Source: a virus (Duplodnaviria; Heunggongvirae; Uroviricota; Caudoviricetes; Peduoviridae). From it: DNA of 31,096 nucleotides. This document shows positions 27,599-29,351 of the stretch, one piece after another; position 1 is the first letter of the stretch; each line of letters starts with the position of its first letter. The notes beneath the pieces were generated by a model, which worked only from the letters and a program-made list of their open reading frames with translations, did no database searches and was not told where the DNA came from. The stretch lies in IMG/VR virus record IMGVR_UViG_2974787870_000001; one strand, written 5' to 3'. The translations under genes were made by a program, and so were the position numbers.

Positions 27599-28609
27599 TT
27601 ATAACGTCACTCCGCCTTTTAGTGGATTCAGAGCGACGGCATTTTGCAGATAGTCAGGCGCAAGGTGCGCATAGGCCATCGTCTGCTGAATGCTCGCATG
27701 TCCCAGAATCTGTTGCAGTGCGATTATATTGCCCCCATTCATCATGAAATGGCTTGCGAATGTATGCCGCAGGATGTGGGTTGCCTGATTGGGTGGTATA
27801 TCAGGTTTCACTCTGCGTAAAATCCCGCAAAATTTCTCATAATCAACTTTGAATAATTTGGCGCTGGCCTCCTCTTTAACTTTTTTCTCCAGTTCCTCAG
27901 AAATCGGCACGGTTCGCTTTTTACCGTTTTTGGTTTTCAGGAAGGTAACCCTGCAATTTGTAATCTGTGCTGGTTTTAGCGTGGCAACTTCCGTCCATCT
28001 TCCTCCAGTGCTCAGACATAAAAGCGCGACAAGTAAGTCATCACCAGCCAAAACATTTAACAGTTTTTCGATTTCTGCTTTTTCCAGGAACGTCATTTCA
28101 GGGTTGGCCTCCGCCAGTGGCGGCAGTCCGTGAATTGGGTGTTGCCCGGAAAATTCATCCAATTGAATTAATTTTGTGAACATGCCGGATAATCGGTACA
28201 TGTCACGGTTTATCGTTGCGGCACTGATACCATCACGTAGTCGCATGGAACGATAATCCATCAAAGCCCTTTTGCTCATCCTGCTCACTGGTATATCACC
28301 TATGCTGCTGATGGTTTTGAGTAGATGATTAAACTCTTTTGTTCCATGCTCGTGGTTTTGCCCGTGATATTTCCACCAGATGTCCAGCAACTCACTCAAA
28401 GTCCGGCGGTCTGCTCGCTGGCCTCCCCATTCTTTCTGACTGGCATTGGCGATTGTGTATCGCTCAAAGGCTAGTGCTTCAGCTTTTCTTTCGAATTTCC
28501 TGCGGATGCGTTTTCCGTCGCGACCGCGAGGTCTAATGTCCACTTCATAGCGACCATCATCGAGCTTCTTAATTGCCATAAGAAAGCCCTCCGGCGCTGT
28601 ATTCACCAT
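27599..28609 (-). CDS. int: Tyrosine integrase
   Basis: 336-aa minus-strand ORF with a C-terminal 'HILRHTFASHF...LGHASIQQTMAYAHL' catalytic region; true start is probably the internal Met 'MAIKKLDDGRYEVD' near 28579. Confidence 0.9.
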   Translation of the reverse strand: MVNTAPEGFLMAIKKLDDGRYEVDIRPRGRDGKRIRRKFERKAEALAFERYTIANASQKEWGGQRADRRTLSELLDIWWKYHGQNHEHGTKEFNHLLKTISSIGDIPVSRMSKRALMDYRSMRLRDGISAATINRDMYRLSGMFTKLIQLDEFSGQHPIHGLPPLAEANPEMTFLEKAEIEKLLNVLAGDDLLVALLCLSTGGRWTEVATLKPAQITNCRVTFLKTKNGKKRTVPISEELEKKVKEEASAKLFKVDYEKFCGILRRVKPDIPPNQATHILRHTFASHFMMNGGNIIALQQILGHASIQQTMAYAHLAPDYLQNAVALNPLKGGVTL

Positions 28610-28648: not shown

Positions 28649-28942
28649 TTAGCCAATCCTTTTCGCGGAGTGGTTGGACTCTGTTGACTCTGGCCCAATG
28701 TGCGCGAGAGCCGGTGCGATTTGTCCTGCGTCCGGCGCGGTTTTATCTGTCATAAGCCATAGAGCATATTTTTGGAATGTGGGATGCATAGTGATTTTTA
28801 GCAAAGCTGTGCCACCGGGTTCAAAGTTTCCTCCTTCATATTTTTTAAGTGTGCTTAGCGGTAACTCTATGATTTCACAGAATTTTGATTGGCTTAGCCC
28901 TTCAGCCTCACGCAAGGCCTTAATCTTTTCGCTTAATTTCAT
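28649..28942 (-). CDS. C: Immunity repressor C (HTH, P2 C-like)
   Basis: 97 aa; HTH region 'LSQSKFCEIIELPLSTLKKYE'; C-terminal 'GQIAPALAHIG' resembles P2 C; divergent from cox. Confidence 0.85.
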   Translation of the reverse strand: MKLSEKIKALREAEGLSQSKFCEIIELPLSTLKKYEGGNFEPGGTALLKITMHPTFQKYALWLMTDKTAPDAGQIAPALAHIGPESTESNHSAKRIG

Positions 28943-29063
28943 TTGACATGGTGCCTATATAGGGACTAAATTCCCTCAAAACTGGAACCTATATAGGTTC
29001 CATTGATTTGAGAATAAACCAGCGTCTAAACGGTTTTGAGTGGTTTAGAAAGGGCTGGATCCT
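28943..29063. promoter_or_regulatory. Pe/Pc switch region: TTGACA -35 (28943..28948), candidate -10 TAAATT (about 28967..28972), two CCTATATAGG repeats (28954..28963, 28988..28997)
   Basis: Two identical 10-bp palindromic repeats flank the candidate -10 of the rightward early promoter; same arrangement as the P2 C operators. Confidence 0.55.
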
Positions 29064-29351
29064 ATGAGGGTACCATATATGGACGCTGAAAATTATGTGA
29101 TTCAGTATCCGCTTGATGCGGTTCATGTGGATAAATTTGCTGATTTATTAGGGAAGCCAAAGACAGCCGTCAGTGAAATGGTGAAGGCAAATAAATTACC
29201 AATTATTGAATTGCGTGATCCTTGCAAACCGAAGGCTCGTGCCGGTGAAAAATGGGTTTTCATTCCTGAGTTTAATCGCGCTGTACGTGAGGCGTTTTAT
29301 AACCGACCGGTTGAACAGCGCGATGCATGGCTTTTGTGGATGGGGTTGTGA
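29064..29351 (+). CDS. cox: Cox (excisionase/early repressor)
   Basis: 95-aa ORF; C-terminal 'RDAWLLWMGL' resembles P2 Cox; start may be the internal Met at 29079. Confidence 0.8.
   Translation: MRVPYMDAENYVIQYPLDAVHVDKFADLLGKPKTAVSEMVKANKLPIIELRDPCKPKARAGEKWVFIPEFNRAVREAFYNRPVEQRDAWLLWMGL

Follow-up and report, generated by a model that had tools for sequence, protein, structure and literature searches.

The systems closest to the locus described here are the immunity switches of P2, WPhi and P2 Hy dis. In WPhi the operators of the C repressor are two 10-bp half-sites, spaced by 34 bp, on either side of the -10 of Pe, the early promoter; C binds both sites, derepression is obtained solely when both are mutated, and cutting the spacing to 2.5 or 2 helical turns leaves repression in vivo unaffected (PMC1904268, PMC1904263). 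The WPhi half-site, TATTGGTGAC, is found in two copies, 34 bp apart, the first of which starts 6 nt after TTGACA. The O1 and O2 annotated in P2 are 8 bp long, 22 bp apart, and they also flank the -10. P2 Hy dis again has sites of 8 bp, with a spacing of 26 bp and placed around the -35 (PMC1904268). DNA bending has been shown for the C proteins of P2 and WPhi, and the two convergent transcripts of WPhi overlap by 82 nt, the start of Pc being 60 nt from O2 (PMC1904263). The P2 C family has been described as binding non-palindromic direct repeats; in the model proposed for P2 the repeat is read by one of the two monomers, the contacts of the other being less specific, and C.Esp1396I and the 434 and P22 c2 repressors are listed as structural neighbours of P2 C (PMC2995052). 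Phages are placed in the same immunity group when their C proteins are at least 95% identical and when they have the same C-cox spacer (PMC3448106).

The window, i.e., the whole stretch of 31,096 bp that was analysed, is 96-98% identical to sequenced P2-like phages (Peduovirus) over its first 25 kb. The genes int and C run leftward and cox runs rightward from a short spacer (Table 1), an order annotated identically in L-413C, and C and cox are divergent as stated in the first-pass annotation. The C protein matches the P2 C structures 2XCJ/2L49 over residues 3-97 (phmmer, E=1.9e-21). Its identity with the C proteins of other phages is 100% (L-413C gpC), 66% (P37), 56% (WPhi) and 43% (P2), and 34 columns are invariant when it is aligned with the C proteins of P2, WPhi, P37 and L-413C. 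For Cox, the identity is 81% with the WPhi protein and 87% with that of P37. The cox gene probably starts at the ATG at 29079 rather than at the upstream ATG at 29064 (the start given in the ORF list and in the L-413C record), because (i) RefSeq and the R18C record begin the gene at the equivalent base; (ii) the Cox proteins of WPhi and P37 align from there; (iii) GAGGG at 29066-29070 is correctly placed as ribosome-binding site.

Table 1. Features of the C-cox switch region, with positions counted from the first base of the window.
Feature	Position	Strand	Basis or remark
int-like ORF	27599-28609	-	ORF list; next after C
C repressor gene, 97 aa, helix-turn-helix	28649-28942	-	ORF; Pfam HTH_3
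Pe -35, TTGACA	28943-28948	+	Abuts the C start codon
Putative operator O1, CCTATATAGG	28954-28963		In the Pe -35/-10 spacer, about -26 to -17; same position as WPhi O1
Pe -10, TAAATT	28967-28972	+	Promoter scan
Left outer dyad arm, CTCAAA	28975-28980		Pairs with 29007-29012 in the RNA fold
Perfect 20-bp palindrome, TGGAACCTATATAGGTTCCA	28983-29002		O2 at its centre
Putative operator O2, CCTATATAGG	28988-28997		At about +10 to +19 relative to Pe; equivalent to WPhi O2
Right outer dyad arm, TTTGAG	29007-29012		RNA fold; arms conserved in relatives
Putative Pc -10, TAGGAT	29059-29064	-	Low confidence; by homology with 'ggatctaa' of WPhi
cox, 90 aa, heads the early operon	29079-29351	+	Pfam Phage_Cox, E=1e-23

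The start codon of C is read as CAT at 28940-28942 (minus strand), and TTGACA begins at the very next base. The promoter scan gives TTGACA-18 nt-TAAATT, with 10 of 12 consensus matches, which confirms the consensus -35 reported between the divergent genes; the start site of Pe would be near 28979, 7 nt downstream of the -10. The whole window contains two exact copies of CCTATATAGG, 34 bp apart from start to start: one lies between TTGACA and TAAATT, the other just downstream of the -10. The two perfect 10-bp palindromes previously seen around the -10 are thus real. Since each copy is palindromic, direct and inverted orientation cannot be told apart at this locus. With one mismatch allowed, the same two sites are still the sole matches (0.27 expected), while two mismatches give 5 matches against 5.2 expected, the three extra ones being scattered, i.e., at chance level. 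No third copy of CCTATATAGG was found in the window, int side included. On the minus strand no consensus promoter for Pc was found by the promoter scan; the WPhi segment 'ggatctaa', on which the candidate -10 of Table 1 is modelled, lies at the WPhi Pc start as placed by PMC1904263. From the comparisons presented below, it is very probable that the two copies of CCTATATAGG are the operators O1 and O2 of C.

In both WPhi and the window, TTGACA abuts the start codon of C, 10-bp sites are placed 34 bp apart (one between -35 and -10, the other downstream of the transcription start), and a dyad flanks O2; the Cox identity of 81% goes in the same direction. On the contrary, the recognition helices are different (GTVKNYESGH for WPhi, STLKKYEGGN for the window, with C proteins 56% identical), the site sequences are unrelated, the sites of WPhi form direct repeats without palindromic symmetry while each site of the window is palindromic, and the C-cox spacer is 16 nt shorter in the window. 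P2 has a homologous C, two sites flanking the Pe -10, the same gene order and promoters that are likewise thought to converge. However, its sites are non-palindromic, of 8 bp and 22 bp apart, its C is 43% identical to that of the window, and its -35 lies inside the C coding sequence. The P2 Pe -35 is annotated at the place equivalent to that of the window. The resemblance to the P2 arrangement noted in the first-pass annotation thus holds for paired sites flanking the Pe -10, but the geometry (10 bp, 34 bp) is that of WPhi and not that of P2 (8 bp, 22 bp). In the same manner, the comparison with the operator half-sites of P2 and its relatives, which had been proposed as a check, reproduces the WPhi geometry exactly while the sequence differs. 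P2 Hy dis has a C of the same family and two repeated sites, but these are shorter, 26 bp apart and placed around the -35; its C is 63% identical to P2 C, compared with 43% for that of the window, thus the two belong to different classes.

L-413C, R18C, FSL SP-004, P24B2 and E. coli prophages have an identical C and a switch region 99-100% identical to that of the window; L-413C and R18C differ from it by substitutions in or beside both repeats. C.Esp1396I and the 434 and P22 c2 repressors are also helix-turn-helix dimers on dyad-symmetric sites, and C.Esp1396I places one dimer on each of two directly repeated palindromes. Nevertheless, they are of other protein families, C.Esp1396I has its sites at a distance of 15 bp, and the lambdoid operators occur in threes and are shared with Cro. 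The family description as non-palindromic direct repeats does not apply to the window, where the sites are perfect palindromes and O2 is embedded in a palindrome of 20 bp. This is regarded as a weakness of the description and not as a ground for excluding the locus from the family.

The 801 bp around the switch are 99-99.8% identical to L-413C, FSL SP-004, P24B2, R18C, P2_AC1 and HQ103, and likewise to a "P2" induced from E. coli O157:H43 T22. At an identity of 99% or more, the C gene together with the spacer recurs in 16 phage records and in 420 of the 5,426 complete E. coli genomes; in 314 of these 420 genomes the 80 nt at 28940-29019 are found exactly (wild-type version). Over the same 80 nt, L-413C has three differing positions and FSL SP-004, P24B2, P2_AC1, HQ103 and others have none. 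By the criterion of PMC3448106, the window is a member of the L-413C-type immunity group. It does not fall in the WPhi class, i.e., C at least 95% identical and operator TATTGGTGAC: C is 56% identical, the operator sequence is another one, and the WPhi DNA matches the window on the cox side only. As judged from its operator, which differs from those of P2, P2 Hy dis and WPhi, the three characterised ones, this is a separate immunity type.

The operator had been taken as specific to this phage and as defining its immunity group. The first point is contradicted both by the 16 phage records and 420 E. coli genomes that carry the same C and spacer and by the presence of the same 10-mer pair in diverged C lineages, as far as Pseudomonas. 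The second one holds in so far as the operator is unlike those of P2, P2 Hy dis and WPhi, but the type so defined is an ordinary and very common one, that of L-413C. Elements of this kind are well known, and the exact sequence is already present in many sequenced phages. The locus represents one more specificity of the P2 C-operator family, which was probably noted already in the immunity classification of 2006. In the literature searched, no mention of CCTATATAGG in a phage context was found, and nothing usable on P2 vir operator mutants; for this class, neither C binding, nor a footprint, nor a reporter assay was found described there.

Variation within the class (at least 99% identity) is too low for conservation footprinting, thus heteroimmune relatives were compared instead. 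One genome per species was scanned, which gave 80 loci with relatives of C; the upstream regions were oriented and 30 of them were aligned. The common layout starts with CAT-TTGACA and, after 3-5 nt, continues with a first site about 17 nt long, a -10 TAnAnT, a left arm (approximately CCCnnAAAAGG), the second site and a right arm (approximately CCTTTTnnGGG). Within the -35, TTGA is invariant in the 30 relatives and the following C is found in at least 90% of them; TAnAnT is present in at least 90% of the aligned sequences, i.e., T28967, A28968, A28970 and T28972 in the numbering of the window. The two sites are alike within one genome and unlike between genomes. Their orientation is direct in 10 of the 30, inverted in 9 (e.g., P37, L009 and L029) and ambiguous in 11; for many of the latter, the window included, the ambiguity comes from self-palindromic sites. 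It must be noticed that in three loci (L007, L008 and L009) the distance between the C start and the Cox homologue is about 930 nt and not about 140 nt; an insertion appears to have taken place between the switch and cox.

Three members of the class carry informative differences. R18C is reported as virulent, in a paper where repressor, operator and lysogeny are not mentioned (PMC6823313), and L-413C is a lytic or clear-plaque mutant of the temperate L-413 (PMC2893161, PMC3448106). Both have a C protein identical to that of the window. In the 801 bp, R18C is distinguished by 28962 G>T (position 9 of O1) and 28988 C>T (position 1 of O2), its other three differences from the window being common to L-413C; the probability that two random changes both fall within the 20 nt of the repeats is about 6e-4. 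In L-413C, 28954 C>A changes position 1 of O1, and 29000 C>A lies 3 nt outside the O2 10-mer but inside the 20-bp palindrome; the latter also breaks a base pair of the O2 hairpin (see below) and is thus readable either way. A third change of L-413C, 28971 T>C in the Pe -10, also occurs in the prophage of strain 41EC2. Paired changes in O1 and O2 are the pattern predicted by the published rule that both sites must be lost. We infer that the substitutions of R18C and L-413C would cause their lytic habit; this is based on the 801 bp, and other changes could contribute. HQ103 (L092), a Yersinia phage whose record gives Y. pestis EV76-CN as host, has both repeats intact and a 7-bp deletion (28777-28783) that frameshifts C after residue 53; from its sequence it looks like a repressor-null member of the class.

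No E. coli prophage resembled the R18C or L-413C version of the region more closely than the wild type does. The variants read in prophages and in IMG/VR contigs fall at 28946 (-35), 28950, 28971, 28972 (-10), 29002, 29024 and 29053. None of the variants read changes a 10-mer, 5 of the 106 variant E. coli prophages having been read base by base; since 80 of the 106 are 28972 T>C, at most 26 could hold such a change. This 28972 T>C, found in 80 of the 420 E. coli prophages of the class, converts the -10 from TAAATT to TAAATC, with loss of the near-invariant last T. Other prophages have 28946 A>G in the -35, or both 28971 and 28972 changed to C. The variants at 28946, 28971 and 28972 look like promoter-down variants of resident prophages, and they may come from a single clonal lineage.

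The binding of C to paired operators over Pe, as already suggested in the first-pass annotation, is supported by homology, by the comparison across classes and by the natural mutants. In particular, the layout is conserved in the 30 heteroimmune relatives while the site sequence changes from class to class, which argues for operators. Repression would then proceed as follows: (i) one C dimer would bind each palindromic site; (ii) C bound to O1 would occlude the Pe spacer and C bound to O2 the initial transcribed region, RNA polymerase being kept off Pe; (iii) the intervening 34 bp would probably be bent by the two dimers; (iv) with Pe blocked, cox and the replication genes would be silent and lysogeny would be maintained. 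A lysogen would be immune to phages with the same operators, and repression would probably persist until both sites are damaged, as is the case for WPhi, P2 and P2 Hy dis. With a palindromic site, a symmetric dimer could contact both halves equally. The variable spacing among the lineages that share the 10-mer (see below) suggests that each site is an independent dimer site. A 10-mer is short for a helix-turn-helix dimer, thus the real site is probably longer, about 18 bp.

The surroundings of O2 have a second property, i.e., they can fold. As RNA, the 20-bp palindrome gives a hairpin of 8 bp (-11.3 kcal/mol, z=-3.5), and the RNA folds of the region are stable on both strands (-11 to -18 kcal/mol, z from -3.5 to -4.4). 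In the 30 relatives, the dyad arms that flank O2 (alignment columns 38-49 and 62-72) show compensatory changes. Over the 11 dyad pairs, 76% of cells are paired, compared with 63% in shuffles and 31-54% when the pairing partners are slid; it must be noticed that the 11-pair structure was chosen by eye from the sequences and is thus biased upward, though the slid controls are clearly lower. Cells with a double change number 43, compared with an expectation of 18, and the observed value was attained in 0 of 500 shuffles. When the MAFFT alignment was folded with RNAalifold, the inner 4 pairs alone were recovered. In Rfam, the segment 28850-29150 has no meaningful match, the sole one being a miRNA at E=0.42. 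The octamer GTTTTGAG at 29033-29040 is a second perfect complement of CTCAAAAC (28975-28982), about 25 nt to the right of the arm used in the fold, and is an alternative pairing partner for the left arm. The 20-bp palindrome was also flagged as terminator-like in the scan; a function of the hairpin as terminator was rejected, since the early operon must be read through and the relatives have no U-tract after the stem.

These folds are the basis of the first alternative: the O2 palindrome would be mainly an RNA or DNA structural element, i.e., a 5' stem-loop of the Pe transcript and/or a part of the C mRNA leader, the O1 copy being secondary. Such an element would affect the stability, attenuation or antisense pairing of the convergent transcripts. 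Besides the terminator-like flag, the stable folds on both strands and the compensatory changes, two results on WPhi go in this direction. From the figures of PMC1904263, the Pe start of WPhi would be near base 1368 of the WPhi locus, in which case, given the overlap of the transcripts, the early RNA would open, from its first nucleotide, with the hairpin, which would lie within the C mRNA leader as well. In addition, replacing the flanking phage DNA of WPhi by vector DNA raised unrepressed expression about 100-fold, an effect left unexplained (PMC1904263). The stem pair broken by 29000 C>A in L-413C may also be counted here.

On the other side, the same 10-mer is present at O1 without any hairpin context, and the loop, i.e., the core of O2, changes along with the C helix in the relatives. 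The 28988 C>T of R18C merely turns a C-G pair into U-G in RNA, which would hardly weaken the stem, and is accompanied by a partner mutation in O1. In WPhi, repression was unchanged when the left arm was removed by deleting 6 or 10 nt on the upstream side of O2 (PMC1904263), thus the arms are not needed for the action of C. The recovery of just the inner 4 pairs by RNAalifold and the missing U-tract in relatives also speak against it. As the sole function of the palindrome, a structural element is unlikely; it could be a layer on top of the operator, and the O2 hairpin possibly has an additional function beside that of operator, without replacing it.

The reading as C operators can be compared further with the distribution of the 10-mer. 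IMG/VR was scanned for two copies of CCTATATAGG lying 10-40 nt apart, and 60 loci were obtained, 50 of them beside a C-family gene. The pairs are spaced by 34 bp, as in the window, in 35 loci and by 22-25, 31 or 32 bp in 15 others; the C gene was checked locus by locus for these 15, which stand beside a confirmed C homologue, and several of them resemble Pseudomonas loci of the species-genome scan. The remaining 10 are unrelated repeat arrays. Altogether, 14 distinct C proteins, 47-73% identical to that of the window, carry the pair, at spacings of 22-25, 29, 31, 32 or 34 bp (L020 and L024, at 29 bp, included), and the DNA around the 10-mers is unrelated among these 14 lineages. Residues S30, T31, K34, Y35, E36, F/Y40 and E41 are kept in all 14 proteins (S-T..K-Y-E...F/Y-E helix). 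Other sites are found in the relatives where residue 30 is N or G, where residue 40 is I or where the helix is of the KNYEGGH type. The recognition-helix positions of P2 C, described as poorly conserved between classes (PMC2995052), overlap the set of residues 30-41 given above.

The link with Cox is of another kind. In WPhi, P37, L006 and L009, Cox is 80-87% identical to that of the window and the repeats are different; in WPhi, P37 and L009 the C helix differs as well, while in L006 it is the same. No Cox match was detectable in the fetched DNA of L020, L024, L121, L138, L152, L076, L135 and L094, and all eight retain the CCTATATAGG pair, with one base altered in one copy for L020 and L076. 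As far as sequence comparison can tell, the repeats thus follow the recognition helix of C and not Cox. L006 is an exception: its helix is that of the window and its repeats are CCTATATGTG, thus the sequence of the 10-mer is not wholly determined by the helix pattern.

This L006 (Kosakonia oryzendophytica) has a C 82% identical to that of the window; its sites form a direct, non-palindromic repeat, GGAACCTATATGTGT, which shares with the 10-mer its left half alone. Another group consists of L094, L096, L109, L124, L131, L135, L136 and L150 (all from IMG/VR) and L076, with C-family genes and pairs that are 22-25 bp apart and lie just after TTGACA. The C genes of the eight IMG/VR loci are apparently of Pseudomonas type, the sole named source being that of L076 (Pseudomonas syringae), where one copy is CCCATATAGG instead of CCTATATAGG. 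In L135 a single long palindrome extends over both sites and the intervening DNA.

A second alternative, according to which the repeats would bind Cox, integrase or a host protein such as IHF instead of C, is highly improbable in the light of these data. Cox does act in the same intergenic region in P2, we know of no identified recognition sequence for WPhi Cox, and the centre of the sites is AT-rich. However, strongly similar Cox proteins stand beside wholly different repeats (WPhi, P37 and L009), the pair persists where Cox is not detectable, the window has no further copy, even on the int side, and the repeats covary with the C helix. The third alternative, two repeats arisen by chance in an AT-rich promoter region, has nothing in its favour beyond the low complexity of the TATATA core and is effectively refuted, as 100 dinucleotide-preserving shuffles of the 31,096-bp window gave 0 exact copies of CCTATATAGG and as at least 14 lineages have the pair next to a C homologue, the flanking DNA being unrelated.

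For the annotation of these phages, the promoter and the putative operators are now located for an immunity type present in about 8% of complete E. coli genomes and carried also by the plague-diagnostic phage L-413C. In practice, the paired operator substitutions, with an intact repressor, are a simple candidate reason for the lysis by R18C and L-413C. Operator mutants should ignore the immunity of a resident prophage, while repressor-null mutants should not, a distinction that matters for the choice of P2-like phages for diagnostics or therapy. Three points appear to be unstated in the accessible literature: (i) palindromic sites, with mixed orientations among relatives; (ii) the use of the same 10-mer, with various spacings, by C lineages that have diverged; (iii) the paired operator substitutions of R18C and L-413C.

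The palindromic sites and the mixed orientations bear on the way a symmetric C dimer reads asymmetric direct repeats. It may be proposed, though tentatively and with some doubt, that the "half-sites" of the P2 C family are complete dimer operators of about 18 bp with an outer dyad GGT-N11/12-ACC, O2 serving perhaps also as the loop and upper stem of a conserved hairpin in the transcripts from Pe and Pc. The class of the window would expose these full dimer operators because its core is a perfect palindrome. If this is true, the orientation and the spacing of the sites would be free parameters (direct, inverted or palindromic; 22-34 bp in relatives), and the "non-palindromic direct repeats" would be a special case. 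Moreover, C proteins that are 47-73% identical and share CCTATATAGG and the S-T..K-Y-E...F/Y-E helix could be cross-immune, and the immunity classes set by 95% identity of C would be over-split.
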